A stretch of DNA of 56,969 nt from a virus (IMGVR_UViG_2740892231_000011:1-56969); one strand, 5' to 3'. Positions 1 to 17,995 are shown, counted from the stretch's first letter. Program-made: numbers and translations. The notes: generated from the letters alone by a model not told the origin.

Positions 1-39
1 ATGGCGCTCATAAATCTGGTATACTTACCTTTACACATT

Positions 40-402
40 GGGGCTGATTCTGGATTCGACGGGATTTGCGAAACCCAAGGTGCATGCCGAGGGGCGGTTG
101 GCCTCGTAAAAAGCCGCAAAAAATAGTCGCAAACGACGAAAACTACGCTTTAGCAGCTTAATAACCTGCTTAGAGCCCTCTCTCCCTAGCCTCCGCTCTT
201 AGGACGGGGATCAAGAGAGGTCAAACCCAAAAGAGATCGCGTGGAAGCCCTGCCTGGGGTTGAAGCGTTAAAACTTAATCAGGCTAGTTTGTTAGTGGCG
301 TGTCCGTCCGCAGCTGGCAAGCGAATGTAAAGACTGACTAAGCATGTAGTACCGAGGATGTAGGAATTTCGGACGCGGGTTCAACTCCCGCCAGCTCCAC
401 CA
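40..402 (+). ncRNA. ssrA: tmRNA (transfer-messenger RNA, SsrA)
   Basis: 363 nt starting GGGGCTGATTCTGGATTCGAC and ending GGTTCAACTCCCGCCAGCTCCACCA; internal tag frame GCAAACGACGAAAACTACGCTTTAGCAGCTTAA (ANDENYALAA*) at about 129..161. Matches E. coli ssrA from memory. Confidence 0.95.
372..402. repeat. att core at ssrA 3' end (left copy of 31-bp direct repeat)
   Basis: GACGCGGGTTCAACTCCCGCCAGCTCCACCA recurs identically at 41255..41285; typical 3'-end tRNA/tmRNA attachment duplication. Confidence 0.75.
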
Positions 403-532
403 ATCATGATTGGACGGTGTAAGGACAACACCAACAAAAACAGGATGTTAGCAGTCTCTGCAGGACACCGACCAGACGGTGAGGGGACAAAAAAGGATAC
501 GCAAAGGAGCCGCGGCTCTTTAGTTACATGAA

Positions 533-556
533 AGCCCGCTAATGCGGGCTTTTTTT
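533..556 (+). terminator. rho-independent terminator-like hairpin downstream of ssrA
   Basis: AGCCCGC-TAAT-GCGGGCT stem-loop followed by TTTTTTT. Confidence 0.5.
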
Positions 557-570
557 ATGGGATAAGACAT

Positions 571-1491
571 ATGAACCAACTGCAAGAAATCATTCAGATA
601 CTAAGTACTGGTGATGAAGGCACAACAAATGCTCTCATAAAAACGAAGATCCTTCTTTTCTCTATCGGGAAAAAGGAGCTTGCTGCATGGGTAAATCATG
701 AGATAAACGGTTATCCTGATTCAGTTTCCCTTCCAGATTATAGAATTGTTGGCACAAGAATTCTTGCAGATCTGAACAACGGCGTTCGCCTATATAGAGC
801 TTTTCCGTTACCGATTGGCTATCTAAGTGAAGATGACTATGAAGATGCTACAACCAGTAATGTGAGGCTTTCAATCAGTCAAATCGAAGAACTAGTAACC
901 AATGCTGGTGATAGCCATGCTCTTCAGCAGCCAATTCCTTTAGATTACGCGTTAGTTAAGTACTGCAAAGGTATCGATAAAGGCTATGAGTTAACACGCT
1001 GTTATAAAGAGATCGCACTACATAACTTTACTTCCATCTTAACTCAGGTCAGGTCACGGCTACTTGATTTTATACTTGAACTTTCTGATCAAGTTTCTGA
1101 AATACCAGATGAGAAAAACATGACAGAAAAACTCAAAAATATCGACACGTCTTCATTATTCCATAACTCAATTTTTGGAGACAATACTGTCATAAACTTC
1201 GGAAATGAAAACTCATTTTCTGTGAATAACCACGTCGTCAAAAACAACACTGAGTCATTAAAAGAGTTTCTCTCAGCTCAGGGGTTCCCTAAATCTGATG
1301 TTAACGATTTAGAAATTGCTATTGGTGAAGATGGCCCGATAGCTAACAAACGTGGTGAATATGGTCAATCTGTTAGTAAATGGTTGGCAAATATTGCGAG
1401 TAAAGCAGCCCATGGTACTTTGGGCATAGGAATAGCTGCTGCAACTCAAGCAGCTACAGCGGCTCTGAAAAAATACTACGGTCTATCATAA
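571..1491 (+). CDS. hypothetical protein (306 aa); candidate defence/abortive-infection cargo with C-terminal small-residue hydrophobic segment
   Basis: Intact ORF in an AT-rich block just inside the prophage end; C-terminus HGTLGIGIAAATQAATAAL resembles a glycine-zipper-type membrane segment; no motif I can assign to a known family. Confidence 0.55.
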   Translation: MNQLQEIIQILSTGDEGTTNALIKTKILLFSIGKKELAAWVNHEINGYPDSVSLPDYRIVGTRILADLNNGVRLYRAFPLPIGYLSEDDYEDATTSNVRLSISQIEELVTNAGDSHALQQPIPLDYALVKYCKGIDKGYELTRCYKEIALHNFTSILTQVRSRLLDFILELSDQVSEIPDEKNMTEKLKNIDTSSLFHNSIFGDNTVINFGNENSFSVNNHVVKNNTESLKEFLSAQGFPKSDVNDLEIAIGEDGPIANKRGEYGQSVSKWLANIASKAAHGTLGIGIAAATQAATAALKKYYGLS

Positions 1492-1540
1492 CCATCATGG
1501 GGTGTCGGGGGTCGGAGGTTCAAATCCTCTCGTGCGACCA
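1492..1540 (+). other. tRNA-Pro 3'-half remnant (non-functional, att-like)
   Basis: CCATCATGGGGTGTCGGGGGTCGGAGGTTCAAATCCTCTCGTGCGACCA matches the anticodon-stem to CCA portion of E. coli tRNA-Pro (proL-type, from memory) with one base missing in the acceptor arm; the 5' half is absent. Confidence 0.7.
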
Positions 1541-1555
1541 AAAATCCCTTAAGAA

Positions 1556-1580
1556 CCAGCCTATTATGGCTGGTTTTTTT
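1556..1580 (+). terminator. terminator-like hairpin
   Basis: CCAGCC-TATTAT-GGCTGG followed by a T-run. Confidence 0.45.
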
Positions 1581-2324
1581 ATGATTGTTTTTTATGCGGA
1601 GAAATACCGGGGAATAATTGGGGTAAAACACCTTTAGGCTATTCACTTAGCCTACCACCATCAAAATCTTTCCGAATGTATCCATCTCTTTTTTCTTATG
1701 CAGCTAAAACGAAGTCTTGATACTGTTTATTTACACAGATAAGAATAATACTGTCTACAAACGCAGTACAAAAGAAGTGTTATGCGTATTGAGATCTCCA
1801 TAACCAAAGACAAAATGACCAAATGCCAAATGGCGCTGTGGACGCGTTAAAGGAAGAGTTAACCCAACACATTGGCAAGCGTTATGACGATGTGGAGATG
1901 ATCGTAAAAGCCACCAGCAACGATAGTTTTTCAGTTAGACATACTGCAGATAAAGATTGAGCTAAAACTTTCGTTCAGGAAACTCTGAATGATACCTGAG
2001 AGTCTACTGAAGAGTTGTTTGTTCACTAGTTAGCACGTAGGAAATCATTCAATACTCGCACTATCGGAAGTTCACCAGCCAGTCGTAGCACGTCCTTGCA
2101 AACGACGTGCCTACAATTTCAATCACCTCTCACCATCAGTTCTATCAATAATAATTAAACAGCGCCTAGACAAAATAAATAACAACAAGTCAACAACCTC
2201 GACAGGATGCCGATGGGATGATGAAGAGATAAGAAAGAATAACCAGTAAAGCCCTAAAACGTCAGCGTTCAGACGCGTTTTTTACTTAACCGGTAACAAA
2301 TACGTTGTATCATAGCAGAATAAA

Positions 2325-4274
2325 ATGATTGTTCTAAATCAGATTAACTCCTCACTTTTGTACAATGTCGCTTACAGGTATACCATGAAATCCGAGACGC
2401 TAACTGTCCAACAACTTTTTCAAGACCGCCGACAATACTGTGTTCCATTCTATCAACGTGCCTATGTATGGACTCAGCAAGACCAATGGTCAGCTCTACT
2501 GGAGGATATCCTAGAGAAAGCACAATCCCGGCTCTCGGGTACAAAACCAACTCCCCATTTCCTTGGTGCGGTTGTACTGGAACCTCAATCAAAAAAAGGA
2601 TTATTAGGTGTAGATTCCATACATATTATTGATGGTCAGCAACGATTGACCACTCTTCAATATGTTCTGGCATCCATCCGATTAGCATTACGTGCTACGG
2701 ATCTTTCCAGCTTAGAGGCTCTCATTTCGCCTTGCCTGAAAAACTCAAACGAAGACACAATGCGAAATAAAGAAGTAGAACGCTTCAAACTGTGGCCAAC
2801 TTTTCGGGATCAAACTCATTTTATTCAAAGTTTTAATGTTGAAAATATTGACGATCTCCGGGACGTATTCTCTGATAGTTTCACGCAGCATGGTACGTTG
2901 CGTAAGCGTTTTAATCACCCGCCATCACTAGAAGCATTATGTTTTTTTACTAAAGCCTTTATAAAATGGATTAAAATAGAAAACCACTCACCACAAGAAA
3001 ATGCTGTAGCTCTAATTGAGGCTGTCTTAACAGATCTGAAACTGGTAAGCATATTTCTCGAAGCTGAAGATGATGCCCAAATAATTTTTGAAACATTAAA
3101 TGGGCGAGGGGCGGAACTTCATGCTACGGATCTTATTCGCAACTATATCTTTATGTGCGCAGAGCATGAAAATATAAATGCTATTGAATTATATGAAAAT
3201 GAGTGGAAGAGCTTTGAAGATAAATACTGGTCGGAAAAACAACGCCGTGGACGTATTAATAAACCACGCATGGAGTGGCTAGTACATGCGACATTGCAAT
3301 CAGAAAGGCAGCGTGAAATTGATCTGTCTCGCCTTTACAATGAGTATCGTGATTATGTAAGTAAGGACTTGTCTTCACAACGAGCAGATCTGCAAGTAAA
3401 GCGCCTCAAACAATATGCATTACAATATAAAGAATTGGTTGATGGTTTTGGCACAACCCCCATCTCACACTTTGGATATCGCATCGCAGACTATGATGTG
3501 ACGACACTTTATCCGCTTGCTTTGTTCATTTCGATAGCTAACATCGCTGATGATGAGAAAGCAGCCATGTATAATGATCTTGTCTCCTACGTAGTACGAA
3601 GAGCCGTATGTGGCCTGACGCCAAAGAATTACAACAATGTATTTATGAATGTATTGCGGCACTTGGCTAAAACGGAAATTTCCAGTGTTGAGTTACGTAA
3701 TATCCTCAATAACTTAAATGGCGAAGCCTCACGTTGGCCTGGTGACTCAGAATTTCTCAACGCTTGCATCAATGCTCCACTTTATCCTGGCAGGCTCGAC
3801 GCACCGAAAATGCGCTCAATGTTAACGGAACTTGAAAGAGAACTTTGTCGCCAAGTGAAGACCGAAAAGCCTGATGTTCCAAATCTTTCTAATCTCGATA
3901 TCGATCATCTTATGCCCCAAAGTTGGTATTCCTGTTGGCCTCTCGAAAATGGTCGTATGGTGACAAATTCAGATGCTACGGTATTGAACCAAATTGTTCT
4001 GTCTGGAACCGATCTTACCCCTGAACAGCTACTGGTAAGGAAACGGCAACAAGCGATAGCTACTTTGGGAAATCTAACTTTGCTTAACCTTAGCGTAAAC
4101 CGTTCTGTTCAGAATGCTGTATTTCTGAAAAAACGTGATGCTCTCATCGTCCACACCAATCTACGACTGAACATTCCACTTATAGTTAAGGATAAATGGG
4201 ATGAGGATGAAATCCTGGAGCGGGGTAAAAAGTTGGGGGAAATTGCATTGAAAGTATGGCCAAAACACGATTAA
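2325..4274 (+). CDS. GmrSD-like type IV (modification-dependent) restriction endonuclease, DUF262 + DUF1524 architecture
   Basis: N-terminal YQRAYVW and DGQQR motifs (DUF262/ParB-like NTPase); C-terminal DIDHLMPQSW His-Me finger motif (DUF1524). True start may be the internal Met at about 2385 (MKSETLTV). Confidence 0.8.
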   Translation: MIVLNQINSSLLYNVAYRYTMKSETLTVQQLFQDRRQYCVPFYQRAYVWTQQDQWSALLEDILEKAQSRLSGTKPTPHFLGAVVLEPQSKKGLLGVDSIHIIDGQQRLTTLQYVLASIRLALRATDLSSLEALISPCLKNSNEDTMRNKEVERFKLWPTFRDQTHFIQSFNVENIDDLRDVFSDSFTQHGTLRKRFNHPPSLEALCFFTKAFIKWIKIENHSPQENAVALIEAVLTDLKLVSIFLEAEDDAQIIFETLNGRGAELHATDLIRNYIFMCAEHENINAIELYENEWKSFEDKYWSEKQRRGRINKPRMEWLVHATLQSERQREIDLSRLYNEYRDYVSKDLSSQRADLQVKRLKQYALQYKELVDGFGTTPISHFGYRIADYDVTTLYPLALFISIANIADDEKAAMYNDLVSYVVRRAVCGLTPKNYNNVFMNVLRHLAKTEISSVELRNILNNLNGEASRWPGDSEFLNACINAPLYPGRLDAPKMRSMLTELERELCRQVKTEKPDVPNLSNLDIDHLMPQSWYSCWPLENGRMVTNSDATVLNQIVLSGTDLTPEQLLVRKRQQAIATLGNLTLLNLSVNRSVQNAVFLKKRDALIVHTNLRLNIPLIVKDKWDEDEILERGKKLGEIALKVWPKHD

Positions 4275-4295
4275 TGCAATTAATAAAATGATTAT

Positions 4296-4321
4296 AGCGG
4301 CCTTACCTTAGTAAGGCCGCT
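4296..4321. terminator. 11-bp stem hairpin after the GmrSD-like gene (putative terminator)
   Basis: AGCGGCCTTAC-CTTA-GTAAGGCCGCT perfect inverted repeat; no clean T-run on the + strand. Confidence 0.35.
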
Positions 4322-4524
4322 ACTCACTATTAAATACTTTAATTTGCATCAAGAACAGCAATGTCAGCCCTAGGTCTCGGACTTTGTACCGCTTATCTTG
4401 TTTTCAAAAATCAGCTCGCATCCTGCACAGTTCAGCGCATTACGTTGTAGATCTGTGTTCTGGTCATTTGTTGATACGCGTACATAGCCAATAAGCATGG
4501 TAGATCCCCCTGACAAAAGCAGGA

Positions 4525-4938
4525 ATGATGCCATTTGCTCGTTATTTCTGCATTTTCATAAACGTTGGTTTGGGAGAAGCGGCAAAACGGGATGTGGGGA
4601 CAGGGGAAAATCAGATACCGGACATGGCCTCTTTTGCCAGTGGTGATGGATGGATGAAATTACCCAACGGGAAAATCCTGCAATATGGTCGTGGTGCGGT
4701 TACGCCGACATTATCGACGCAAACAATGAGAATTACATTCAGCATCCCTTTCCCCAAAAAAGCGGACTGCGCCATGCTTACTCATTCTGGTGATGGCGGT
4801 GCGCCTTTAGGCGCTGGGCGAGGGTTCGTGATGACTGCAGAAGGCCCAACGTTAACCGGCTTTAATTCTGCTTACAGAACGTCATCAACCAGCGACACGG
4901 TATCGATGAATTACAGTTGGTGGGCTGTTGGTGAGTAA
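4525..4938 (+). CDS. orphan tail-fibre variable C-terminal segment (S'v-like)
   Basis: Tail-fibre tip-like sequence, convergent with the main fibre gene; only 7 in-frame codons upstream before a stop, so no constant part is attached. Confidence 0.45.
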   Translation: MMPFARYFCIFINVGLGEAAKRDVGTGENQIPDMASFASGDGWMKLPNGKILQYGRGAVTPTLSTQTMRITFSIPFPKKADCAMLTHSGDGGAPLGAGRGFVMTAEGPTLTGFNSAYRTSSTSDTVSMNYSWWAVGE

Positions 4939-4949
4939 TTTTATTCAGG

Positions 4950-5402
4950 GTGATTTATATGAACGAATATGTTTATAGCGCAAGGCATAATGCTTTTTTC
5001 CCTGTGGATATGATTGATAAATATAAATCAGAGGGATGGGATTTATCAGATGCTAAGGAAGTGAATCAAAATATTATCAGTGAGTTTATGGCTGAACCGC
5101 CACAAGGAAAGATCCGTATTGCCGGAAATGATGGGCTGCCTGCGTGGGCAGATATTCCTCCACCCACGCATGAAGAGCTTATTGAAATTACTGAATCAGA
5201 AAGACAGCTATTAATTAACCAGGCCAACGAATACATGAACAGTAAACAATGGCCCGGTAAAGCCGCTATTGGTCGTCTGAAAGGTGACGAACTGGCGCAA
5301 TATAATTTGTGGCTGGATTATCTGGACGCACTGGAGCTGGTCGATACTTCCGGTGCGCCAGATATTGAATGGCCTACGCCTCCGACAGTTCAGGCCAGAT
5401 GA
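4950..5402 (+). CDS. tail fibre assembly protein (Tfa, alternative copy)
   Basis: 150 aa with Tfa-like C-terminus (LWLDYLDALELVDTSGAPDIEWPTPP); paired with the orphan fibre segment. Confidence 0.7.
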   Translation: MIYMNEYVYSARHNAFFPVDMIDKYKSEGWDLSDAKEVNQNIISEFMAEPPQGKIRIAGNDGLPAWADIPPPTHEELIEITESERQLLINQANEYMNSKQWPGKAAIGRLKGDELAQYNLWLDYLDALELVDTSGAPDIEWPTPPTVQAR

Positions 5403-5976
5403 CATCCGGCGCGGTGCTGGTATCTGTTGCCGTCACCGCGTCAATGTAATCCAGCACAGCGTTAAGGCGGGTTGTTTCTGCCTGCGTCAGTTTACGTCCG
5501 GCCTGCAATTTCAGCTGAATCAGACTGATGGAGGCCATTGCAGTATCAATCAGCGACTGGCGCTGTGCTTCTGCTGCATCTACTGCTGCGCCGTGCTGTG
5601 CCTCGGTATCCGTCACCCATTTCTCACCATCCCATTTATCGTATGGCGTTAACGGGGCGATAGTGGTTGTATTATCAGGGTAATCACCCGGAGCTGTGAT
5701 TTCTTTTGATTCCCCTGTTTCGGTGCTAAAAACGATTTCACCGCGATGGTCTGGCATATATTCCCATGATTTTAAATCTGCTGAACGGCAGATAGTATAA
5801 CCAGCCTTATATGTACCAGGAGCATCTAAACAGGAATACGCCGGAATACCGACACCCACAACAAGATATTCGGTTGATGTGGAAAGATATTCCTTCGTCT
5901 CAGCATCAAAATTATAAACGGTAATGTTTCCTGCCTTTGTAGTAATGAGTTCGCTATTTAATACGGCTTTATTCAT
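5374..5976 (-). CDS. tail fibre assembly protein (Tfa)
   Basis: 200 aa; C-terminus LNAVLDYIDAVTATDTSTAPDVIWPE is Tfa-like; immediately downstream of the tail fibre gene. Confidence 0.7.
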   Translation of the reverse strand: MNKAVLNSELITTKAGNITVYNFDAETKEYLSTSTEYLVVGVGIPAYSCLDAPGTYKAGYTICRSADLKSWEYMPDHRGEIVFSTETGESKEITAPGDYPDNTTTIAPLTPYDKWDGEKWVTDTEAQHGAAVDAAEAQRQSLIDTAMASISLIQLKLQAGRKLTQAETTRLNAVLDYIDAVTATDTSTAPDVIWPELSEA

Positions 5977-6701
5977 CAGGCTGCCCTCACGATATAGTTA
6001 AATGCGACGTTGCGCGGCCGGGTTTCAGAACCACCAACCGATACCGTAGAAATTGAATTTGCCGTAATAAGTTCCCCGAAAGCATCAGCCGTAACTACGA
6101 ACCGACCTCCCGTTGGATCAAAACCTGTTAGCGCATAGTACTTGTCAAACCAGTGCCCATGAGAAGCAAATAAATGGTCTTGAGATGTCAACAAACCACG
6201 AGAGGAATCCACCCCGCGCCCATCATCCCATCCACGAATAAATTCACCGCGTAAATCAGGCAATTTATTTGTCGGGTAAGCCTTTGCCAGTTCCGGGTAT
6301 TCTTCAGCAGAAAAAGCCGCACCATTGCATTTCAACCAGCCTGTTGGCGGAGTGGCTGAAGGCCACGGAACAGGCACCCCAACAGGTAATGCTGAGCCTT
6401 CTCCCAAACCAAGGTTTTCGAGAGCCGTTTTCACCGTGCCATCCGATTTGATATCGCCAAACGGATTCTTGCGGCTTAACAGCAGCGCACGAAGCGCGGT
6501 AAGCAGCTGATCATGCCGCCCCTTCTCCAGGCTGGCACCGGATGCCTCCACAACACTGCAAAGTTCCTCCTGCAACATGTCAAAGTAGTCATCATCCAGA
6601 TCGGTGGCAGGTGTGCCGGTCTGGGGGTTACCACGGGTAAAACCGTTCTTACCCGCGCCGAACTTATCCTTCTGCGCGGTTTTCGTATCTATACGATGCA
6701 T
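5976..6701 (-). CDS. tail fibre protein (Mu S-like)
   Basis: 241 aa; C-terminus ...[17 protein letters not shown] typical of Mu/e14-type fibre tips; follows the baseplate genes. Confidence 0.75.
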
Positions 6702-6704
6702 GGA

Positions 6705-7289
6705 TTACTCCGGATATTTAAAAATTACGTAGGTATGCGACGGGCAGAGTTTGTTAAGCACACACTCGACAACGGTGTCGCCCCAGATACGCAGTGCGGA
6801 ATCACAGGGATCGCCACATGTCATCCAGGTGGTGTTGGTGTCGGCTGGCATGTTGACCTGCCAGTAATACCGCCATTCCGGCGCATTCACCGCGTCAGTA
6901 CAGGCCGATGAGCAGGTGAACGTGCTTTTGTCGTATCGCGTGATGGTGGCGTCTGGTCTGCCCAGGGCAGCAAGCTGTGCAAGGTAAAAATCCTCATTGA
7001 TGCCGCCCGCCAGGTTAACCTTCGCATCCAGTCGTTGCTGACGCTGGCGAAGGCTCTGTGTCCCTGCGGGAATACATTCATCCGGCAGGCCGCACAGACG
7101 CTCCCAGCGATTTATCAGTTCGGTGGTGGTGCGCGGATCCAGCTCCCGCATCAGGGCATCCGCACGCTGATGAACGCGGGTTAATGACTGTGCCGCACCG
7201 GCAATCGCCGGATCGCTGGCTGACCACGCCGGACCGGGCGGCAGCAGTGCCGACAACAGACGGATGTAATCATCGTTTGTCACGTCCAT
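6705..7289 (-). CDS. tail/baseplate protein, Mu gp48 (DUF2313)-like
   Basis: 194 aa; position between baseplate J-like gene and tail fibre as in Mu-like tails. Confidence 0.6.
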
Positions 7290-8338
7290 GAAATCGTCCC
7301 CAGAACCGCCAGTTCATTTTTTGCAATGGAGATATTGTCCGCCGGAGCAAGCAACTGATGGCTGTATTCCCCGTTCGCACCGGAAATCGCTTCACTGATA
7401 CGCGACACCTTCAGCTCTCCCTGCGGATAACCATCACGCAGCAGGAATGAACGCAACTCTGCGGTAATGGCAGCCCGTATTTCCGGTGTGTCCGGCGTCA
7501 CGCGGATATGAAAATCCACCGTATGCGCCACCGGCCTGAACACATACAAATCAGAGCCTGCCACCGGGGCCAGTGGCTCAATGTGTTGTCTTGCCGCCGT
7601 TTCCGTTGATTCTTCCGGAATGGGATTAATCAGGTCACTGCTGGCAATCATCACACCGACAGTTCCCGTTCCCATCCAGTGACGGTATGTCCATGCGCGG
7701 GTAATGCCGGGCACTTCTTTAGCCCAGACGACATAGTCCCCGTCAGCCCCGCCCTGCGGCGTCCAGTAATACCGCTCAATGACGCGGGCGCGCCACGTTT
7801 CCAGATCTTCAGTATCGAATCCGCCAGTCAGGGTATCTGCCACACCGGAAGACGGCAGACCATTCACCGGCGTGACCAGGATTAATGCCGTACCGTCGTC
7901 AGCGTTACCGACCGCACCTGCAGTTGAGCAGGCGATCGGCACGCGCAGGACACCACCGGAGCTGGTTGCATCAGAAGTTGCCGTGTACTGAACCAGGTCA
8001 TCGCGCTGAATAACACTCCCGGCGGTCACCTTCAGGCCATCGCTGACACCTTCCCAGCGCATATACCCGTTGGCAGACGTGGCCCCCTTGCGCGGACACC
8101 GTTTCATCGCAGCATGTCGCGCCAGCCAGGACTCATCGCACAGGTCAGGCAGCATGTTCATTGCCAGATAATCGATGTAACCGTAAACCGTATGCAGCGC
8201 CGCCGCATACACCTTTGCCCGCACGTCTTCATCCATGCGCCGGAGCGTGTCGCTGACGTCCAGCCTGGCGAATAAATCGTTACGGAGCATACTGATATTT
8301 TCTGCCAGCGTCGGGCGTTGAAATTCACTGTCCGCCAT
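7280..8338 (-). CDS. baseplate protein, Baseplate_J / Mu gp47-like
   Basis: 352 aa; gene order and sequence character consistent with baseplate J family. Confidence 0.75.
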
Positions 8339-8753
8339 GCGTTATCGCACTCCACAGATCATCAAAAGAAATCATTACCGGTCCGTCACGACGCCAGAGG
8401 GTGATACTGTTACCCAGCTCATTAATCCCGGTGCGGCGGATATCCAGATCAATACGGGACACCACGCCGTCATCAATCATCCATTGCAGGCATTCGCGGA
8501 TATACCCCCTTACCGTCTGCACCAGCTGATTGGTCAGTTTGCTGCGCTGAAGCAGCCACAGTCGGGAGCCGTAACGGTCATTCTGTACCGCAGGCCAGGT
8601 ATCCCCCCACCATCCCATCGGGACGTCGGCATTGTCATTAGGTTCAACCCGCCGCCAGGTGAACAGGGAAATCACCACGGCACGGGTCAGCGGATCCAGC
8701 GGTGCGCTGGCGCAGGTGCGTTTACCGTTCACCGTCAGCCACAGTTCCATCAT
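8325..8753 (-). CDS. baseplate protein, Mu gp46-like
   Basis: 142 aa, translationally coupled within the baseplate block. Confidence 0.6.
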   Translation of the reverse strand: MMELWLTVNGKRTCASAPLDPLTRAVVISLFTWRRVEPNDNADVPMGWWGDTWPAVQNDRYGSRLWLLQRSKLTNQLVQTVRGYIRECLQWMIDDGVVSRIDLDIRRTGINELGNSITLWRRDGPVMISFDDLWSAITHGGQ

Positions 8754-9298
8754 GCCTCCATCGCTTTATCAGGTTTGTCGGTGTTACTGCCCTGACCGTT
8801 CTCTCTGTGACGATGCCCGTTATAGGCAAGCCGCATCGCTGACATGGTGGTGCCGCCGGAGTCGCACAGGTCTTTCACCTGTCCGGTCACTTCCGGGTCC
8901 ATTTCAAAACGTGCTTCAGGTGCATTGCGAAACGTGATCGTTTTACCTGCACCGTCCACCACGATCCCCTCCCGGGTCAGCGTCACGGACTGCCCCTGAT
9001 CGTCATAGACAGCCACCTCCCCCGTATGCAGCCCTTTCAGGCGGTAGCGCCGGTCCGACACCGTAACAACCACCGCATGAGAACGGTCGCCATCCGGAAA
9101 CAACACCACCGCTTCCGCACCGCTGTTTGCCCTTGCGGTAAAACCGTAGGGTTCAAGATGTTCAACCCCGGCTTTGGGTTCACCGGCAATCAGGGACACA
9201 TCCACGGTCTGACATTTCGTGGCGGCACTGATGCTTTTCACCACTGCCCGCCCAATCAGGCCGAGAAGTTGTCGCTGCATGGCTTCAATCGTCCTCAT
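8750..9298 (-). CDS. baseplate assembly protein V-like (spike), Mu gp45-like
   Basis: 182 aa; position and sequence consistent with baseplate spike. Confidence 0.65.
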   Translation of the reverse strand: MRTIEAMQRQLLGLIGRAVVKSISAATKCQTVDVSLIAGEPKAGVEHLEPYGFTARANSGAEAVVLFPDGDRSHAVVVTVSDRRYRLKGLHTGEVAVYDDQGQSVTLTREGIVVDGAGKTITFRNAPEARFEMDPEVTGQVKDLCDSGGTTMSAMRLAYNGHRHRENGQGSNTDKPDKAMEA

Positions 9299-10377
9299 CA
9301 GAACGGGTCCTCCTGTACTCTGGCTTTTTTCTTTTTCCGCGCGCCGGGGTCTTCAGGTTCAGGCAGATAAGCATCAGGCGGGCCGACACGGATTTCCGTC
9401 AGGGTGCCGTTCTGGTCCTGAGTAAACGTGACTTCCGAAACAAGCAGTTCGGTATTGTCGAAACCACAGACCGGATCAAAGACAATCACCCGCTGGTTGG
9501 GCTGCCACAGCGTACCGTTACCCTGTCGCCAGCCCTGCACCACATAGGTGGTTTCATCCGTCCGCGCCGCCCGTTGTCGGGCTTCAAAGTCCGCACGGGC
9601 AATACAGCCTGCCCCCGTAGCCTGCCCTGTCTGCCTGATATACATCGGACGGTAACGGGCAATAAATGCGTCCTCTGTGCGGGCCCGCAGCGCGGTGGTG
9701 GTGGCCTCACCGAAATCATCGTCGTTTCCGGCACGCTGCCCCGCCACCTGGTAAACTGAAAACCGCTCCCGGATACTCTTCTCCGTATCACAGGAAAGGA
9801 TGTTTTCCCCAAGTACCAGCGCGGTATGTGCCCGCGTTGAGCCAATACCACCAATCACCAGCCTGCCGTGCGGGTCGTCATAAGCCAGCGCCTGCTGCTG
9901 ACCGAGTATTTTGTTGATCACCTCGATCACCGTTTCACCGTGATCAGGCTGGACATCCGGAATAACACCCGACGGCGCATCGCTGTTCACCACCTCAATG
10001 CCGAAAGGCGCAGCAAGCGCCTGCGCAATCTGTACCAGCGATCGTCCGTTAAACTGTGTCGGTTCGGCTGCACAGTCAATCAGGTCAGCAGTCAGACTAC
10101 GTCCGGCAATACCGGTGCTGACCGAACGGGCATCGTAACGAACGGGGGTCGCCTCCACCCAGCCGGTGATCACCAGCTCATCACCAATCAGCACTTCCAC
10201 TTTTGAACCATTTTTAATGCGCGGCTGAAGCGTGGTGATACCCTCATCTCCCGGCCACTGGCGGGTGATCTCCACGCTGAAATCCCGCGCCAGCCGTTCA
10301 ATACCGGCACCGATGCGCACCGATGTCCAGCCATTCCACTCCCGGCCATTTACCCGTAGCGTGACGTTATCGTTCAT
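9298..10377 (-). CDS. baseplate hub / late control D-like protein (Mu gp44/P-like)
   Basis: 359 aa; follows DNA circularisation protein as in Mu tail module. Confidence 0.7.
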   Translation of the reverse strand: MNDNVTLRVNGREWNGWTSVRIGAGIERLARDFSVEITRQWPGDEGITTLQPRIKNGSKVEVLIGDELVITGWVEATPVRYDARSVSTGIAGRSLTADLIDCAAEPTQFNGRSLVQIAQALAAPFGIEVVNSDAPSGVIPDVQPDHGETVIEVINKILGQQQALAYDDPHGRLVIGGIGSTRAHTALVLGENILSCDTEKSIRERFSVYQVAGQRAGNDDDFGEATTTALRARTEDAFIARYRPMYIRQTGQATGAGCIARADFEARQRAARTDETTYVVQGWRQGNGTLWQPNQRVIVFDPVCGFDNTELLVSEVTFTQDQNGTLTEIRVGPPDAYLPEPEDPGARKKKKARVQEDPF

Positions 10378-11744
10378 TGCACTGGCACCTTCAGAGGGAT
10401 CACCGGCACAAAGCCGGGATGCGTAATGGCATTACGCCGGATAATGTCCGCGTCACGCGCCGCGTTATCAAACCAGGTCGCCGCCAGCACCAGCGCGGGT
10501 AAGACCTCATCCGGCGTGCGCTGAATGATCCGTGCAGACTGTTCAAGGCGCGTGTTGATATCCGCATTCAGATCTGCTTTCACCCGGCGCAGTGCCAGAA
10601 ACAGCGCATCACTGGTTGTTCGGGACAACTCCTTATCAATTGCCGTATTCAGTGTGTCACGAATGTCAGTCAGTTCTTCCCACGTCGGCAGGTCAACCGT
10701 GCTTTTCACCGCTGGTGCATTGTTCAGTGCCGGATGCGTGACGGAAGGCCAGCCAGTGCTCTGCGCGGGTGTTGTTGCCTGCCCCACTGCGGCATTCTGC
10801 ATCACCGCGGAAGTTGTTGGCGCAGGCAATCGGGTGACGGCATACGCCGCTTCGCTGATTGCGGTCGTACGAAGGGTGCTGGCAACCACGTTACGCTGTT
10901 GCGTCGCCGTGGCGGTGGTTTTACTGTCCGTTTTCCAGACGCCGCGCGGTTGCAGATCGCTGCCGAGGCTGACACCGGAAAGCGTTTTGATCATGGTGAC
11001 CAGGTCGCTGGCGTTACCATAAAGGCGTTTCCCGGTACGCCACATTTTCTGCACCTGCTCAACGAAATTTTTGCCTGACGATGGCGGCGGCAGAAGTACC
11101 GAGATATCCCCCTGCAACAGCCTGGCGGCATCCGATACGGCAGAATCCACCACTTTCATTGCATCAGAAACATACCCAAGCATTGTGCTGGCATTACCGA
11201 CGACGTCGTTCTGCACAAAATCTGCCACGCCATCGATACTGAAACCACTGAAGCTGTCACTGATGCAGTCATCCAGTGCAGAACAGGATGACATCAGCGT
11301 CTGCGCCGTCGCCGCACCTGAAGTGGGGTAAGAGAGTTCTCCCGCTTCGACAAACTTCAGGTCAAAGCGGACAATACGCCCTTCACTCTTCGATGTGCTG
11401 ACCCGAACTTCCCCGTCAACACAGACTTTCAGCTCACCGTAAGTCGGATGGACAAGCGTGCCAGGACCGGGTTTATTCAGCGCGTCAATCAGGCGATCGC
11501 GCTGGTCAAAGCAGTCATCTCCCACCACATAAGCTGCGATGGACGGGCGGAAAGTGATTTTCCCCAGGTCTTCGGTATAGGGTTTGTCGCGGTTCGGGTA
11601 TTCGTGCGTTTCCACACGGCGACCGGTTCCCGCACTTTCTTCTTCAACCTTAAACGGCACACCGCGAAATGACGCGTCCTGAAGTCTGTCTTTCCACGTC
11701 ATATAAACTCCGTACATAAAAAATCCCACCGGAGTGGGACTCAT
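10374..11744 (-). CDS. DNA circularisation protein N-like (Mu gp43)
   Basis: Starts ...MTWKDRLQDASFRGVPFKVEE; likely true start at the internal Met near 11702, which has a GGAG RBS and follows a hairpin. Confidence 0.75.
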   Translation of the reverse strand: MSPTPVGFFMYGVYMTWKDRLQDASFRGVPFKVEEESAGTGRRVETHEYPNRDKPYTEDLGKITFRPSIAAYVVGDDCFDQRDRLIDALNKPGPGTLVHPTYGELKVCVDGEVRVSTSKSEGRIVRFDLKFVEAGELSYPTSGAATAQTLMSSCSALDDCISDSFSGFSIDGVADFVQNDVVGNASTMLGYVSDAMKVVDSAVSDAARLLQGDISVLLPPPSSGKNFVEQVQKMWRTGKRLYGNASDLVTMIKTLSGVSLGSDLQPRGVWKTDSKTTATATQQRNVVASTLRTTAISEAAYAVTRLPAPTTSAVMQNAAVGQATTPAQSTGWPSVTHPALNNAPAVKSTVDLPTWEELTDIRDTLNTAIDKELSRTTSDALFLALRRVKADLNADINTRLEQSARIIQRTPDEVLPALVLAATWFDNAARDADIIRRNAITHPGFVPVIPLKVPVQ

Positions 11745-11762
11745 TAACAGATTAATTTTTCA

Positions 11763-13598
11763 TTACCTGCCAAAGCGCGTATAGCCAACATCATGGCTGA
11801 CATCAAAACCGCTGGATCGCGTTTCCATAACCCGCATACCCGGAGGCGAATTCACAAAAGAGACCTTGATCTCACCATCAACTTTTGGCGCAGAAGCTTT
11901 GTTAATCATGAAGGGATTCGGGCCTGTGGCATCGGAGGCGTTGTTTGACTGAGCCGGATCTACCGCCGGATAAGGTGTGTATCCCCGTGCCGGTATTCCC
12001 GTCCCATAAGCATCATAAGCACCCGCGCCCCACTGCGCCGAGTTAATGGCATCAACCGTGTCACCGGAACTGTCGGTAAACCATTCAATAATCGGCTTCA
12101 GCTTATCCCACATATCCTGAAACCACTTAACAACCGGTCCCCAGTTATTGATTACCATCCCCAGCGGCGACCAGGCAAAAACCTTCTTCAGAAGTTCCCG
12201 GCCAGCCTCAAAATAAGGACCAATGGTTTCCCAGAGCTTCTTGAAATAAGGTCCGACAACATCCCAGTTAGTGATAATTAATCCCGCAGCCAAGGCTATC
12301 GCCGTCGCAATCATTCCTATCGGCGTCATCGACATGATCCTGCTGACAATACTGATGGCACCGCCAACGCCCATCAATCCCAGTTTCAGAATCGCAAGAC
12401 CGGCAGCAAGCCCGACGACGCCGCGAATAACCCGGGGATTTTCATCCGCAAACTTCGTGAATTTTTCCCCTAACTCCCCCAGCCATTGCGTGATATTTTT
12501 GGCGTCACCAGAAAATGCGCCGCCAATAGCCGCAAGGCCGTTAGTTGCGGTCCCCGTCATTGCCTCCCACAGGTTGGACAGCGTACCAAGCTGGGCCTGA
12601 ACACGTTTATTCAGGCTGGCCTGTTTATTCATCTTCTGCTGGATCTGATCGTAACCATCCTTTCCTTTATCGATCAGAGCATTGACCACCTGAAGGGTTT
12701 CAGCATCATCACCAAATATTGCCTTAAGTACACCGGTTCGCTTAACGTCGGTCAGTTTTCGCAGCTTTGCCAGTTGCCTGAACATGTTATCAAGACCGCC
12801 AAAACTCCCTTTGCCGTCAGTAAAATCGAGCTGCACTCCGAGTTTCTGGCGGGCCATGACTTTATTGACGTCCCTGATTTTCTTAACGCTTAATCCGGAC
12901 TGGATAACTTTTCGCAGGGCATTACCTGCCGACTCCCCGTTCATCCCCATCTGATCCATCATGACGCTGATAGGGGCAAGGCTCTGTGCAGCCTGAAGAC
13001 CGTCCTTATTCACCATCTTCAGAACAGAACTGGTTTTAGTGAAGAAGGACAACATGTTGGTATCGTCAACGCCCAGATAAAACGCCTTCTGGATAGTGTC
13101 GAACAGCCCCATCATGTCTTCTGACGCCGTTCCGGTAGCATCCTGCATCTTTGCAGCAAACTCAGCAGCCGCTTCTGGTGTTTTTTTCAGTTGTACCGCA
13201 AGATAAGCTGTCGCTTTACCCACACCACCCAGAATGTTTTCTGCCGGGATCCCCTGACGCACCAGCATCTGCATCATGTTCTGGAAATCAGCCGTTGTAC
13301 CGGGTAGCTGGTTACCCAGGCCAATAGCCAGTTTATTGATGTCCTGAAAGCGCTTTCCAACCTCGCCGTTCGCATCCATCATGGCGACTTTCAGCCCGGT
13401 GGCGGCGTTTTCCTGATCGGCATAAGATTTCAGGGAAAGCGTCAGACCCGCTGCCAGTCCGCCACCAAGCGCCAGCCCACCCTGTGACGCTTCTTCCGCC
13501 TGGCGTTTAAATCCCCGGATTTTCTTTTGCATTTTCGACAGCGCCGGAGAAAGCCTGTCGACACCGGTGATCAACGCCTTAAGCTCAAATTCAGCCAT
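11763..13598 (-). CDS. tail tape measure protein
   Basis: 611 aa, Gly/Ala-rich with hydrophobic segments, downstream of the chaperone pair. Confidence 0.8.
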   Translation of the reverse strand: MAEFELKALITGVDRLSPALSKMQKKIRGFKRQAEEASQGGLALGGGLAAGLTLSLKSYADQENAATGLKVAMMDANGEVGKRFQDINKLAIGLGNQLPGTTADFQNMMQMLVRQGIPAENILGGVGKATAYLAVQLKKTPEAAAEFAAKMQDATGTASEDMMGLFDTIQKAFYLGVDDTNMLSFFTKTSSVLKMVNKDGLQAAQSLAPISVMMDQMGMNGESAGNALRKVIQSGLSVKKIRDVNKVMARQKLGVQLDFTDGKGSFGGLDNMFRQLAKLRKLTDVKRTGVLKAIFGDDAETLQVVNALIDKGKDGYDQIQQKMNKQASLNKRVQAQLGTLSNLWEAMTGTATNGLAAIGGAFSGDAKNITQWLGELGEKFTKFADENPRVIRGVVGLAAGLAILKLGLMGVGGAISIVSRIMSMTPIGMIATAIALAAGLIITNWDVVGPYFKKLWETIGPYFEAGRELLKKVFAWSPLGMVINNWGPVVKWFQDMWDKLKPIIEWFTDSSGDTVDAINSAQWGAGAYDAYGTGIPARGYTPYPAVDPAQSNNASDATGPNPFMINKASAPKVDGEIKVSFVNSPPGMRVMETRSSGFDVSHDVGYTRFGR

Positions 13599-13773
13599 GT
13601 GTGCGTTTCTCCTGCTCTATCCTGTTTGCCTGACTGACCAGCAAGGGAATTTCACTGATCGGCATATTCAGCAATTCGAAGGGATTAATGCGCCAGTAAC
13701 TGGCGCAGTCAAAGAAGCGATCAGTGAGGTATTCAGCCGTCAGGCCTGGAGGAAAAAACCAGCCACAAGCCAC
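13591..13773 (-). CDS. tail assembly chaperone, -1 frameshift extension ORF
   Basis: Overlaps the upstream chaperone ORF by about 34 nt in the -1 frame; slippery heptamer T_TTT_TTC lies in the overlap. Confidence 0.5.
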   Translation of the reverse strand: MACGWFFPPGLTAEYLTDRFFDCASYWRINPFELLNMPISEIPLLVSQANRIEQEKRTHG

Positions 13774-14009
13774 GCCGCTGCATTCAGGTCTGCCGGAGAC
13801 ATCTGGTCGACAGAGCTTTGCGGCACTTTCGCCAGCCGCACAATGTATTTCGACACCACATGCGCCAGAAGTCTGACGGACTCATCCTGATTCATCTGGT
13901 AGGGATACCCCAGCTCGCGGACATCCTTCCCGGTGGGTTCATCAAACTCCAGTACGGAGAGTGTCTCGCCATGAGCGATAATCGGTTTCTTTAACTCAAG
14001 CTCTTTCAT
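13740..14009 (-). CDS. tail assembly chaperone (Mu gp41-like)
   Basis: 89 aa between tail tube and tape measure genes; ends at the slippery site. Confidence 0.6.
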   Translation of the reverse strand: MKELELKKPIIAHGETLSVLEFDEPTGKDVRELGYPYQMNQDESVRLLAHVVSKYIVRLAKVPQSSVDQMSPADLNAAAWLVAGFFLQA

Positions 14010-14365
14010 TACTGGTAATCCCCTTCTTCACCGTGGAACTCAAGATCAACCGTGCCTTCTTCGGCATTATGGTTCGCTTCGCCGTGCAGCCAGGCTGACG
14101 ACAATACATAGACCTGACCGTTCGCCAGCTCAGCAGTGATGGTCATCTCATCAGACGAGGTGATTTTACTCACAGGAAAATTCTTCGGCACCTTGAAGGT
14201 CCCTTTAACATAGGGCGCACGGTGAGTTTCCTTGCGGTCCACTGAACCGTCCAGGCCGATGATGTCATCATTGACCGTCCTGTTCATGGGCACCTCAATG
14301 CCGCCGGTCAGCGATAGCTGCTGACCGTCAATTTTGAAATAACAGGTTCCCCCGATACGGGCCAT
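14009..14365 (-). CDS. tail tube protein
   Basis: 118 aa immediately downstream of the sheath gene. Confidence 0.7.
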   Translation of the reverse strand: MARIGGTCYFKIDGQQLSLTGGIEVPMNRTVNDDIIGLDGSVDRKETHRAPYVKGTFKVPKNFPVSKITSSDEMTITAELANGQVYVLSSAWLHGEANHNAEEGTVDLEFHGEEGDYQ

Positions 14366-15861
14366 TATGCAGACTCCTCTGAATACTGAAGACGGAACTG
14401 GTTAACCACGGCAAAGACACGCAACTGGTTAACATAGTCAGGCGGGAACAGCGTGTTCAGGCGGTTCGGATCGCTGGCATCACGCTCCACAACCAGGTAC
14501 TGCTTGAACAGTTCGTAGTTTTCCACGATCCCCGCACGCTCGAGCTGACGGTAGGTTGCCAGCAGTTCCCCTTTGATCACTGCCGGGGTGACAATCGCCT
14601 GACCGGGACCAAAGCGGGTACCGTCACTGGCAAGCTTGTGACGCCCGTACTTACTGGTAATGACGGATTTCAGTTTGCGCAGTACATACGCGCTGGTATG
14701 CAACGTCTCGCTGTCGAGGTAGCTGTTATCCGCAACCCCGTAAGCGTTTTTCCTGTACGTGGTGACATCACGCTGAATGCGCAGTACCCCGCTTTCGACA
14801 TACGCCGTTGCCACGCCATGAGACAGCAGGGTCTGTTGTTCGGTCATCGTGAACCGTTTCCCCTTCGGCGCAGGCAGCATACCCACCAGCTCACCGGTCT
14901 GCGTGGGACGTGCCGGATCGTTGCGGATAAACACCGCTGCGCGGGCGGTACGGCTTGCCGCCAGCTCATCGGCAGGCGTCTGGGTGTCTTTTTCGTACCC
15001 CGCCAGGGTAATGTGCTGCTGGTTAAACTGGTCACCTGCGGTCACCAGTTCTGACAGCGTGCCGATCTTTGCCGTATACACATGGCCATACAGCTGACGC
15101 GCATAGCTCCAGCGACCGCTGGTATCGTTCATCTCGGTCACCAGCGTGTTAAGGGAGGCCGTGTCGTTGAACGGCAGACCGATATAATCAAACGGCTCAT
15201 CCGCCATTGCAGCCACCGCGCCGGTGAGAACCGGAGCGCCCGTTCCGGCGGTCCCCGCCGCCACGGCAATCTGTACGCCCGCTGGCAGCACTTCGCCCCC
15301 ACCGAAGCCGTAGTAATTGAGGCTGACAGGAATTTCATTCCCGCAAAGCCCCTTATGACGCGCGGTCAGTGTGACCACGCCAGCCGAAGATGAGGCCGTA
15401 AACGGCAGGGCCGGAACGGCATTGATGGCATCTTTGATACTGCTGGCAATCGTCGCGACGTTATCGCCGTTGGTCACCGGTGCCTGCACGCGGGTACGTC
15501 CCACATAAACATTCACCGTGCCGGTTTCGGTTGCCGCGCCGGTCACCGTCAGCGTAACTGTTGCCGCCGCGCCCGTGGATTCAGGAACGGCAATCACATA
15601 CAGTTCACCAAACGGGTCGGTCTGGCGATAAGCCTCGACCATACGCGCCAGCTGACTTCCCGCACCACAAATCTGGCGTGCATAGTCTGCCGATGGCATC
15701 AGCACCAGACTGTTGGCAACAATCTCTGCACCGTTATTGGCATGACCAATCAGCAGCGATGCTCCGCTGTCCTGTGCAGTATTCGCCGCCGAGTTATCCA
15801 TTTCCGCATAAAACAACGGAACCAGCGTATTCGACGGAATGGTGTTAAAGCTTATCGTCAT
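14365..15861 (-). CDS. contractile tail sheath protein
   Basis: 498 aa, sheath-like sequence; sheath-tube-chaperone-tape measure order. Confidence 0.85.
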   Translation of the reverse strand: MTISFNTIPSNTLVPLFYAEMDNSAANTAQDSGASLLIGHANNGAEIVANSLVLMPSADYARQICGAGSQLARMVEAYRQTDPFGELYVIAVPESTGAAATVTLTVTGAATETGTVNVYVGRTRVQAPVTNGDNVATIASSIKDAINAVPALPFTASSSAGVVTLTARHKGLCGNEIPVSLNYYGFGGGEVLPAGVQIAVAAGTAGTGAPVLTGAVAAMADEPFDYIGLPFNDTASLNTLVTEMNDTSGRWSYARQLYGHVYTAKIGTLSELVTAGDQFNQQHITLAGYEKDTQTPADELAASRTARAAVFIRNDPARPTQTGELVGMLPAPKGKRFTMTEQQTLLSHGVATAYVESGVLRIQRDVTTYRKNAYGVADNSYLDSETLHTSAYVLRKLKSVITSKYGRHKLASDGTRFGPGQAIVTPAVIKGELLATYRQLERAGIVENYELFKQYLVVERDASDPNRLNTLFPPDYVNQLRVFAVVNQFRLQYSEESA

Positions 15862-16015
15862 CGGTATTCACCTTTTTATTCACGCGCCGGATATCACCCG
15901 CGGCTTCACGGCGCAGCCAGTAGTTGTTCTCGTCAACATTTCGCCCTTCGGCGGGCAAAAGGTCGCCGCGGGCAGGGTCAGGAACTGACCGCCCTTTAAC
16001 AGGTTTGACAAACAT
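15845..16015 (-). CDS. small hypothetical protein (56 aa), not in ORF track
   Basis: ATG preceded by GAGGA at 5-nt spacing; stop overlaps the sheath start (MFVKPVKGRS...DDDKL). Hand-derived coordinates. Confidence 0.3.
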   Translation of the reverse strand: MFVKPVKGRSVPDPARGDLLPAEGRNVDENNYWLRREAAGDIRRVNKKVNTDDDKL

Positions 16016-16023
16016 GAGGATCC

Positions 16024-16584
16024 TCAGGAAGGAAGGGTTATTTCGGTGTGATGTTCGATATCGCCGTCAGGCCCGTTACCGGGCTCGAGATAATCAACAT
16101 CAATCGCCAGCGTTTGCAGTTCATCCAGACTGTTCAGATCATCCTGCTGGCGGGTATCGTCTTCAGTCAGCTCGCTGATGACCGAAAAATCGAACTGATA
16201 AATCAGCTCATGACGATTCAGATCCAGCAGCGTGCCGCCGTCATAGGTAATCGGGTTACCGCACGCCTCCGGGTTCCAGCCCAGCAGAGCCTTAAAGAGC
16301 ATCTGCCGGACATCGTCCACCACATCATACGAGGCAAACTGACCGCGCTCATCACGCCCGTTACTCAGTATGACAACCACGGAGAAGCCCTCTTTCAGCT
16401 CCTGCCAGTAGTCGGTCTGGCTTTTGTTTTCTCCCGGAGAATCATCACCCGGTACAACATATGCCGCCGGGAGTTTCAGCTTTCCGACCTCCGGCAGATT
16501 TTTGAACTGGGCCGCGCCTGCAACCCGGTTTTCAAAATACGGACAGCGGGCACGCAGTGCAGCAATAACAGGCGTCAGTTTCAT
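16024..16584 (-). CDS. phage structural protein, Mu gp37-like
   Basis: 186 aa, acidic; placed between neck genes and sheath. Confidence 0.5.
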   Translation of the reverse strand: MKLTPVIAALRARCPYFENRVAGAAQFKNLPEVGKLKLPAAYVVPGDDSPGENKSQTDYWQELKEGFSVVVILSNGRDERGQFASYDVVDDVRQMLFKALLGWNPEACGNPITYDGGTLLDLNRHELIYQFDFSVISELTEDDTRQQDDLNSLDELQTLAIDVDYLEPGNGPDGDIEHHTEITLPS

Positions 16585-17087
16585 CTGTGTCGTCGCTCCG
16601 GCTTCAGTGATTTACGCAATTCCCGCGCCAGAAAATAGCGTGTCCAGCTGCGGTTCTTTTCAAGCGTTTCCACCATAAAGTTATTACGTGGAGCCAGTCG
16701 CCAGCCGCTGCCACCGGATGCACCACGATGATGGCTGCGACGACGCTTTGCTCCTCCCCGGACACCAAAAAACAGAAACGCCGGATAGAAGTCACCAGAG
16801 ATCATCCGGTTCCCCTTCCCGTTGCGCTGGTTAGGGGCAATGCGTGTCATAAAACCGGCTCGCTTTTTACTGGCTCCCGGCACCATGTAACCAATCGAAC
16901 GAGCCAGGCGTCCGGTCTGATAACCGGGGTTTTCACCCGGTGCCGACCGCGCACGGCGCATCACCAGCCGACGGGCATCACGCATATGACGCTGCCCAAT
17001 CGTGACAAACGCCCGCCGGACACGGGCGCGGTTAAAGCGCATCTCGGCGGGCTGCTGAACATCAACGTGAAAAAAGGAAGTCGCCAT
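16581..17087 (-). CDS. virion morphogenesis / tail completion-like protein
   Basis: 168 aa, Arg-rich; coupled within the head-tail joining block. Confidence 0.5.
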   Translation of the reverse strand: MATSFFHVDVQQPAEMRFNRARVRRAFVTIGQRHMRDARRLVMRRARSAPGENPGYQTGRLARSIGYMVPGASKKRAGFMTRIAPNQRNGKGNRMISGDFYPAFLFFGVRGGAKRRRSHHRGASGGSGWRLAPRNNFMVETLEKNRSWTRYFLARELRKSLKPERRHR

Positions 17088-17472
17088 TGTTGCCTCCGTG
17101 ACTCTGCGTAAATTCGCCCAGCTCCGTACATTCCAGCAGCAGAAAGCGCCGCGCCCCGTTCAGATCGCGCTGACGTTTTACCCGGTACACACTATCACCG
17201 CAGACCACCTCATAATCAGCGGTGATCCCCCGGCGGTAACGAATGGTGATGTAATGGGTGATGGCGTCCCCGGTCTGCGCGGTTTCCTGCCTGGTGGTGG
17301 CACTGGTCTGGATAACCTTCGCCCATGTCCGGAACGTAACCGGGTATTGAGGCTCCACGCCAAAGTTATCCGCGGGCATATCCACCCGCAGGCGGATCAG
17401 GACGCGTTTATTCAGTTCACCGGGGTCCGGCAGAATGTAGGTTGCGCTGGTCTGCGCCTGACGAATTTTCAT
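17062..17472 (-). CDS. head closure / head-tail adaptor protein
   Basis: 136 aa downstream of the connector gene. Confidence 0.5.
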   Translation of the reverse strand: MKIRQAQTSATYILPDPGELNKRVLIRLRVDMPADNFGVEPQYPVTFRTWAKVIQTSATTRQETAQTGDAITHYITIRYRRGITADYEVVCGDSVYRVKRQRDLNGARRFLLLECTELGEFTQSHGGNNGDFLFSR

Positions 17473-17792
17473 TGCGGAAAGTACCTGTACGGGCCGACAA
17501 GCCAGCCAAAACTCTGCGGCATGTCGAGTTTCTCCACTTCCGTAACCGACGAGCGGTTTTCGTAAAAATGGCTGATAAGCATCAGCATCCCCAGACGAAT
17601 ATCATCCGGCAGGTGCAGCCCGTCCGGATCGCTGTCCGGAATGGTTTCATCCGGTGCATAGAGCTTCCGGTTCAGATACGTTTCCGTCCGCTTTTGTGCC
17701 GCACATGCCAACAGTTGCAGATGGCGGTCATCAGTATCGAAATCCTCATCCAGCCGGAGTTGGGCTTTAATCTCTTCCATTGTCAGAAGCAT
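17469..17792 (-). CDS. head-tail connector protein (gp6-like)
   Basis: 107 aa acidic protein immediately after capsid genes. Confidence 0.6.
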   Translation of the reverse strand: MLLTMEEIKAQLRLDEDFDTDDRHLQLLACAAQKRTETYLNRKLYAPDETIPDSDPDGLHLPDDIRLGMLMLISHFYENRSSVTEVEKLDMPQSFGWLVGPYRYFPQ

Positions 17793-17794
17793 AC

Positions 17795-17995
17795 TCAGCC
17801 CTCTTTACTGGTCGTGGCTTTTTTCTCTTTTGCCGCTTTACTGCTTTTTGCACTGATTCCGCGCTCTGCTAACCCGGCCTGAAGTGCAATCTCCTGCACC
17901 CGGGCAGGAAGCGCCCCGTCGTCATACTCACCGGCCCGAATGACCTCAACACGCATACCGTCCGGTGACCATTTCAGATCTTGTTTCAGGATCAT
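17795..17995 (-). CDS. small hypothetical head-module protein
   Basis: 66 aa ORF coupled between the major capsid and connector genes. Confidence 0.4.
   Translation of the reverse strand: MILKQDLKWSPDGMRVEVIRAGEYDDGALPARVQEIALQAGLAERGISAKSSKAAKEKKATTSKEG

Follow-up and report, generated by a model that had tools for sequence, protein, structure and literature searches.

Among the GmrSD restriction enzymes, Eco94GmrSD (629 aa) has been purified and mutated (He et al., 2015; PMC4437046). The purified enzyme cuts DNA carrying glc-5hmC or 5hmC in a reaction that is stimulated by ATP or GTP and depends on Mg2+ or Mn2+, with the cut placed between two modified cytosines that are separated by about 17-23 bp, and each of the substitutions D507A, H508A and N522A abolishes this activity (PMC4437046). 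Eco94GmrSD restricts T4 Δip1 more than 10^6-fold, and relatives are toxic when overexpressed (PMC4437046). In Eco94, the gene is found immediately past the tail fibres of an SfII-like prophage (He et al., 2015; PMC4437046). The corresponding protein of UTI89 is UTI89_C2960, also named EcoUTI89GmrSD or the “UT enzyme” (He et al., 2015; PMC4437046). A second-hand account has the UT enzyme restricting T2, T6 and RB69 but not T4, with the T4 protein IPI* being without effect, and has IPI* blocking the CT enzyme but not the UT type (PMC4437046). Furthermore, the T4 internal proteins Ip1, Ip2 and Ip3 differ in the GmrSD subtype that they block, and this interplay is under active study (Nat Commun 2025; PMC12373910). 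With regard to architecture, the DUF262 domain has a ParB/Srx-like fold in which the DGQQR motif handles the gamma-phosphate of the NTP (PMC4619093), and DUF1524 is a His-Me finger nuclease (PMC4437046; PMC4619093). For the related BrxU, ATP binding turns an intertwined dimer into monomers, and defence requires that the subunits repeatedly separate and re-associate (PMC8565348).

The stretch of DNA analysed here (the window, 56,969 nucleotides) carries a gene of this family close to its left end. On sequence grounds, we read it, with a probability of about 0.93, as a UT-type allele of the prototype E. coli GmrSD, i.e., a stand-alone, single-chain Type IV enzyme borne as a moron of an ssrA-integrated, SfII/SfV/e14-like lambdoid prophage with a contractile Mu-type tail. 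The identification of GmrSD at this position is correct and already known, as the enzyme, its mechanism and its position by SfII-like tail fibres are all published. With the enzyme family, a near-identical enzyme and the prophage location having been described between 2007 and 2015, the locus has little weight as a discovery; it is useful as a clean, annotated example. The label available in RefSeq is a mere “DUF262 domain-containing protein”, though the entry describes a validated Type IV restriction enzyme.

The initial annotation had placed a single large ORF at 2325-4274, and this frame is indeed open without interruption on the + strand (649 aa). What does not stand is 2325 as the start of the gene, since translation almost certainly begins at the ATG at 2385 to give a product of 629 aa. 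The choice of this start follows from three observations: RefSeq places the start of the gene at ATG 2385 (629 aa); positions 1-629 of the 629-position PADLOC mREase_IV model pair with ORF residues 21-649 (1410 bits); and the allele of strain APEC O2-211 carries, between the upstream ATG and ATG 2385, a 10-nt insertion with a TAA that breaks the frame. Coding sequence is thus not conserved over the 20 additional codons. Moreover, no Shine-Dalgarno sequence precedes 2325, and an AGG lies upstream of 2385. The in-frame extension at 2325-2384 (+ strand) is thus probably an untranslated 5' leader, followed by the gmrSD coding sequence proper at 2385-4274 (+ strand; 629 aa plus stop).

The domain architecture proposed for the ORF was recovered in full by profile search. 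Pfam GmrSD_N (PF03235, formerly DUF262) covers ORF residues 28-276 of 649 with profile positions 1-199 of 199 (E 3.9e-34), and GmrSD_C (PF07510, formerly DUF1524) covers ORF residues 471-639 with profile positions 1-137 of 138 (E 4.6e-20), both scores far exceeding the gathering scores. All three motifs named beforehand are in place, namely YQRAYVW (nt 2451-2471), DGQQR (2631-2645) and DIDHLMPQSW (3897-3926). The invariant DGQQR (+ strand, residues 83-87, within IIDGQQRLTTL at residues 81-91 of the 629-aa protein) is the NTP-binding and hydrolysis signature of the ParB/Srx-like DUF262 domain (PMC4619093; PMC8565348). The core of the His-Me finger (3897-3950, + strand) runs from DIDHLMPQ, with D507 and H508, through N522, the three residues being those mutated in Eco94GmrSD (PMC4437046). 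It conforms to the family pattern (I/L/V)(E/D)H(I/L/V)xPQ plus a downstream Asn, and the residues of the GmrSD_C motif are kept (IDHLMPQ 506-512, N522 and LGNLTLLN 561-568).

The likeness to BrxU and SspE suggested in the initial annotation holds at the level of domains only, as BREX and Ssp genes are absent nearby and the protein belongs to the stand-alone, prototype GmrSD clade. BrxU, the BREX-associated GmrSD that provided the first crystal structure of the family, shares with the window protein DUF262 and DUF1524, the DGQQR motif and a DH...N nuclease motif (PMC8565348), but its sequence is too distant for retrieval from the PDB by phmmer; the sole PDB match of that search was a distant DUF262 protein (9jfl_B, E 3.5e-8) aligned over the N-terminal domain only. 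The DUF262 domain in common, together with weaker PADLOC matches to SspE and Orf5/HEC-06 models, might suggest the nuclease component of a multi-gene system such as BrxU in BREX or SspE in Ssp phosphorothioate sensing. Such a role is extremely improbable, as the stand-alone mREase_IV model is the best match by far (1410 bits vs 259 or less) and close homologues restrict phage when cloned alone (PMC4437046). Furthermore, the SspE models cover just ORF residues 22-142 of 649 at the N-terminus (E about 1e-16 or weaker), and no brx, ssp or dnd genes lie nearby, the neighbours being an AbiTii gene, a DinI-like pseudogene, an invertase remnant and tail-fibre genes. A search of NCBIfam matched no model to either gmrSD or AbiTii.

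The assignment to the stand-alone GmrSD enzymes is also supported by identity to the described proteins. The 629-aa product equals WP_000834401.1 (strains WP2-S18-ESBL-07 and SFE8) exactly, and it is identical to the UTI89 protein, likewise of 629 aa, at 624 of 629 residues (99.2%). The five substitutions from the window to UTI89 are A46V, R175H, K190E, L346S and A559S, three of which fall in the variable N-terminal domain. UTI89 has only one gmrSD homologue, and its locus is organised alike (ssrA, DinI-like pseudogene, gmrSD, invertase remnant, tail fibres). Identity to Eco94GmrSD/EcoCT596 GmrSD is lower, at about 93%, with a recombinant N-terminal segment, but length, architecture, D507/H508/N522 and the position downstream of SfII-like tail fibres are the same (PMC4437046).

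The allele of APEC O2-211, which belongs to the Eco94/CT596 group, differs from the window protein at 44 amino acids (~93% identity). The differences are concentrated within codons 1-190 (2385-2954), which contain 30 of the 44 (binomial p = 2e-7). Positive or diversifying selection on these N-terminal differences was considered and rejected, as dN/dS in codons 1-190 is only 0.13 and dS is tenfold higher there than elsewhere. Because dS reaches 0.70 in this segment and about 0.07 in the rest of the gene, the segment is best regarded as recombinant. As judged from these rates, the gmrSD alleles are mosaics whose N-terminal 190 codons have been swapped by recombination.

The gene was found in 306 of 5426 complete E. 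coli genomes (about 5.6%), of which 300 have a full-length copy, and was chromosomal every time. Among 50,697 deposited phage genomes, tblastn returned distant relatives only (24% identity or less over the full length) and no close homologue, and carriage is therefore documented in prophages only.

A gene carried in a prophage could also be a decayed or silent remnant, inactive in the lysogen. Pseudogenes occur on both sides of it, a DinI-like one and that of the invertase; the toxicity of overexpressed relatives (PMC4437046) might select for silencing; and the evidence for a promoter is weak. The promoter-like site TTAACC-16-TATCAT (2286-2313, + strand) matches the consensus at 9 of 12 positions, and the promoter and terminator scans yielded no more than the shuffled background. 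The site lies where the smallest conserved gmrSD module has its left edge, with the homology common to all alleles beginning at 2279, so that a role in transcription may be suggested from its position. On the 3' side of the gene, a 13-bp, GC-rich, terminator-like hairpin (4294-4323; scored on the - strand) separates gmrSD from the convergent invertase remnant. Against decay, the frame is full-length with model positions 1-629 aligned, and the catalytic and NTPase motifs are all intact. No frameshift, truncation or motif loss was seen in gmrSD, the sequence being that of WP_000834401.1, and the inactivating lesions relative to homologues that had been named at the outset as grounds for abandoning the enzyme reading are thus absent. 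In addition, the overall dN/dS against other alleles is 0.15-0.23 and therefore indicates purifying selection on gmrSD, and the exact protein sequence occurs on 395 contigs of the protein collection. An intact and presumably functional restriction gene is by far the better reading, and a silent remnant is very unlikely.

The AT-rich character of the segment between ssrA and the tail-fibre genes, pointed out in the initial annotation, was borne out: GC content is 41.4% in gmrSD and 40.6% over 403-4376, vs 55.7% in the tail and head genes (6400-24000), with ssrA at 40-402 and the fibre genes beginning at about 4525. Base composition is thus clearly atypical. The description of the gene as cargo at the end of a prophage also holds. 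The last 26-38 nt of the tmRNA gene ssrA (365-402, + strand; attL) recur at 41248-41285 (+ strand; attR), 40,883 bp away, where no such repeat is expected by chance. The two copies of the ssrA 3' end, 40.9 kb apart, thus place gmrSD within an att-bounded lambdoid prophage. Between the repeats are found a tyrosine integrase (37791-38987, + strand; Pfam Arm-DNA-bind_2 and Phage_integrase), a CI-like S24 repressor, a CII-like regulator, a Q antiterminator and a lysis gene. Intact ORFs are present where the 98.6%-identical prophage of WP2-S18-ESBL-07 (WP2) has annotated terminase, portal, protease, capsid, sheath, tape-measure and baseplate genes. In the tail region, identity to the Shigella phages SfII, SfV and SfI amounts to 97.5%, a kinship that was also described for the prophage of Eco94 (He et al., 2015; PMC4437046).

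The same distinct composition (40.6% vs 55.7% GC) could mark gmrSD as part of a separate, older ssrA genomic island that merely adjoins the prophage. The half-site left over from a tRNA-Pro (1491-1548) and the exchangeable AbiTii cassette further indicate a composite history, and the neighbouring invertase gene is truncated. The ssrA repeats, however, enclose gmrSD together with the entire prophage. Moreover, an identical junction (gmrSD, 41-codon invertase remnant, invertible tail-fibre segment, baseplate genes) occurs at four unrelated chromosomal sites, namely ssrA (UTI89 and JCM 20135), next to ykgR (Res13), icd, which is the e14 site (APEC O2-211), and tRNA-Pro downstream of yejM (GZM7). 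The junction between gmrSD and the invertase remnant is kept in 286 of 300 genomes with the full-length gene, a pattern to be expected only of a gene that travels with its phage, and the minimal segment common to all alleles is 2279-4579. An island origin is therefore largely refuted already and has a very low probability, whereas a moron inherited with its prophage across integration sites accounts for the junctions.

Comparison with e14, the cryptic prophage of K-12, helps to define the slot occupied by the gmrSD moron. Its gene order is tail-fibre segment, pinE, mcrA, attR, and McrA is likewise a Type IV, modification-dependent nuclease (HNH-type) that shares the slot between tail-fibre invertase and att. 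McrA is nevertheless an unrelated protein without the DUF262 NTPase domain, and in e14 the gene upstream of mcrA is an intact pinE that points the same way, whereas in the window gmrSD is convergent with a 41-codon pin stump. The stump, a Pin/Gin-type invertase remnant consisting of the first 41 codons only (4376-4498, - strand), matches the Pfam Resolvase N-terminal domain and is annotated in RefSeq as “recombinase family protein, missing C-terminus”. The pinE DNA of e14 is 96% identical to this remnant, and the homology ends at 4377; the gmrSD module therefore fills the place taken in e14 by the 3' part of pin and by mcrA. The slot past the tail-fibre invertase hosts alternative Type IV nucleases in this phage family, mcrA in e14 and gmrSD in the window, which bears on forecasts of how susceptible clinical E. 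coli will be to T-even therapeutic phages. In the Sf phages, the slot is taken by the gtr serotype-conversion genes.

Adjacent to the remnant lies the invertible tail-fibre segment, of 1.86 kb (4560-6417), bounded by 20-nt inverted repeats at 4560-4579 and 6398-6417. It is flipped in WP2-S18-ESBL-07 relative to the window, with flanks that are 98.6-99.9% identical. As inversion has occurred despite a cis invertase of 41 codons, the invertase would have been supplied in trans.

The activity of the window enzyme may be described by analogy with these relatives. It is only from 99%- and 93%-identical homologues that NTP-stimulated cutting of DNA with glc-hmC or hmC, dependent on the modification, and the restriction of T-even phages are known, and the following scheme is drawn from them. 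The N-terminal DUF262 domain (ParB/Srx-like, DGQQR) would bind and hydrolyse NTP, and the C-terminal DUF1524 His-Me finger (D507/H508/N522) would cut glucosyl-hmC or hmC DNA, as in close homologues. Arabinosyl-hmC DNA may also be cut, as is suggested by the restriction of RB69. As in Eco94GmrSD, cleavage is predicted between a pair of modified cytosines spaced by about 17-23 bp, and a cycle from dimer to monomers, driven by NTP and needed for defence, may operate as in the related BrxU. A lysogen would presumably express gmrSD from its own promoter and thereby exclude phages of the T-even type. The enzyme is expected to behave like the UT enzyme, with T2, T6 and RB69 restricted, T4 not restricted and IPI* having no effect. 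Both the host range and the inhibitor profile are extrapolated from the tested UT enzyme, which is five residues apart, three of them in the variable N-terminal domain.

Apart from gmrSD, the accessory DNA at both prophage ends is, by its gene content, a defence cluster wrapped around the former attP, with AbiTii, the DinI-like pseudogene and gmrSD on the tail-fibre side and AbiLi/AbiLii on the integrase side. The AbiTii-domain gene (571-1491, + strand; 306 aa; Pfam AbiTii 3e-33 and PADLOC AbiTii) is putative defence cargo next to attL. It is a swappable cassette (556-1491) set between conserved flanks (1-555 and 1492 onward), and its place in UTI89 and JCM 20135 is taken by a PD-(D/E)XK nuclease-domain gene, a small hypothetical gene and a LEM-3-like GIY-YIG gene; the stretch from ssrA to the tRNA-Pro relic is thus where the window and UTI89 differ in cassette. 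Directly after the AbiTii stop codon lies the relic 3' half of a tRNA-Pro with its terminator (1491-1578, + strand), the old attL of a tRNA-Pro-integrating relative. The tRNA-Pro part itself (1491-1548) comprises ~57 nt with a 1-nt deletion. The fragment was identified by blastn instead of Rfam; in an Rfam E-value scan of 1-5000, tmRNA alone was above threshold, and neither the 2000-2280 spacer nor the tRNA-like fragment gave a match. Positions 1491-1548 are 98.6% identical to the junction of GZM7, in which the same arm (DinI-like gene, gmrSD, tail fibres) abuts an intact tRNA-Pro downstream of yejM. From the relic and this junction it follows that the ssrA phage took its arm from a tRNA-Pro-integrating relative, the integration modules having been swapped.

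On the integrase side, the AbiLi/AbiLii pair (39178-41129, + strand; AAA_21 ATPase and RloB) is situated between integrase and attR and consists of an AbiLi-like AAA_21 ATPase of 421 aa and an AbiLii/RloB-like protein of 233 aa. In WP2, two unrelated hypothetical genes are found in its place. The ends of the integrase and AbiLii ORFs share GAAAAT(T)GAGAAGTAAAA (38955-38989 and 41097-41131), a possible cassette boundary.

A broader proposal, which we consider doubtful, is that the five substitutions and the mosaic N-terminus give the window enzyme a phage range or an inhibitor escape different from those of both the UT and the CT596/Eco94 enzymes, and that gmrSD, with AbiTii and AbiL, forms an exchangeable defence cluster round the attP of the SfII/e14-like family, moved among at least four integration sites by int-att swaps of the kind recorded in the tRNA-Pro relic.

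The DinI-like pseudogene between the tRNA-Pro relic and gmrSD is frameshifted (1782-1999, + strand; RefSeq annotation of identical DNA). Ahead of it, on the strand of gmrSD, is a LexA-box-like site, CTGTTTATTTACACAG, at 1723-1738. The strict LexA consensus gave no match, and the relaxed pattern CTGT-N8-ACAG gave one, upstream of this pseudogene. The icd-site and ykgR-site alleles lack the stretch holding both (1723-1999).

Beyond attR, another integrative element is arranged in tandem with the prophage (41286-56969). It encodes a P4-type integrase (41409-42680), a Response_reg_2 protein with no PADLOC match (43356-44972), a HEF_HK/HATPase protein (44956-46674), a DUF927 protein (47870-50008) and an SSB (51111-51560), and contains three spaced 21-nt repeats at 50096-50168 and 12-nt repeats at 53117-53281. 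Within the prophage itself, the Q antiterminator and holin genes of WP2-S18-ESBL-07 are separated by a KwaB-like (Kiwa) domain gene and a hypothetical gene (L005, 21919-23330). The window has different DNA at about 26032-27504, in an otherwise collinear prophage, which marks another variable moron slot.
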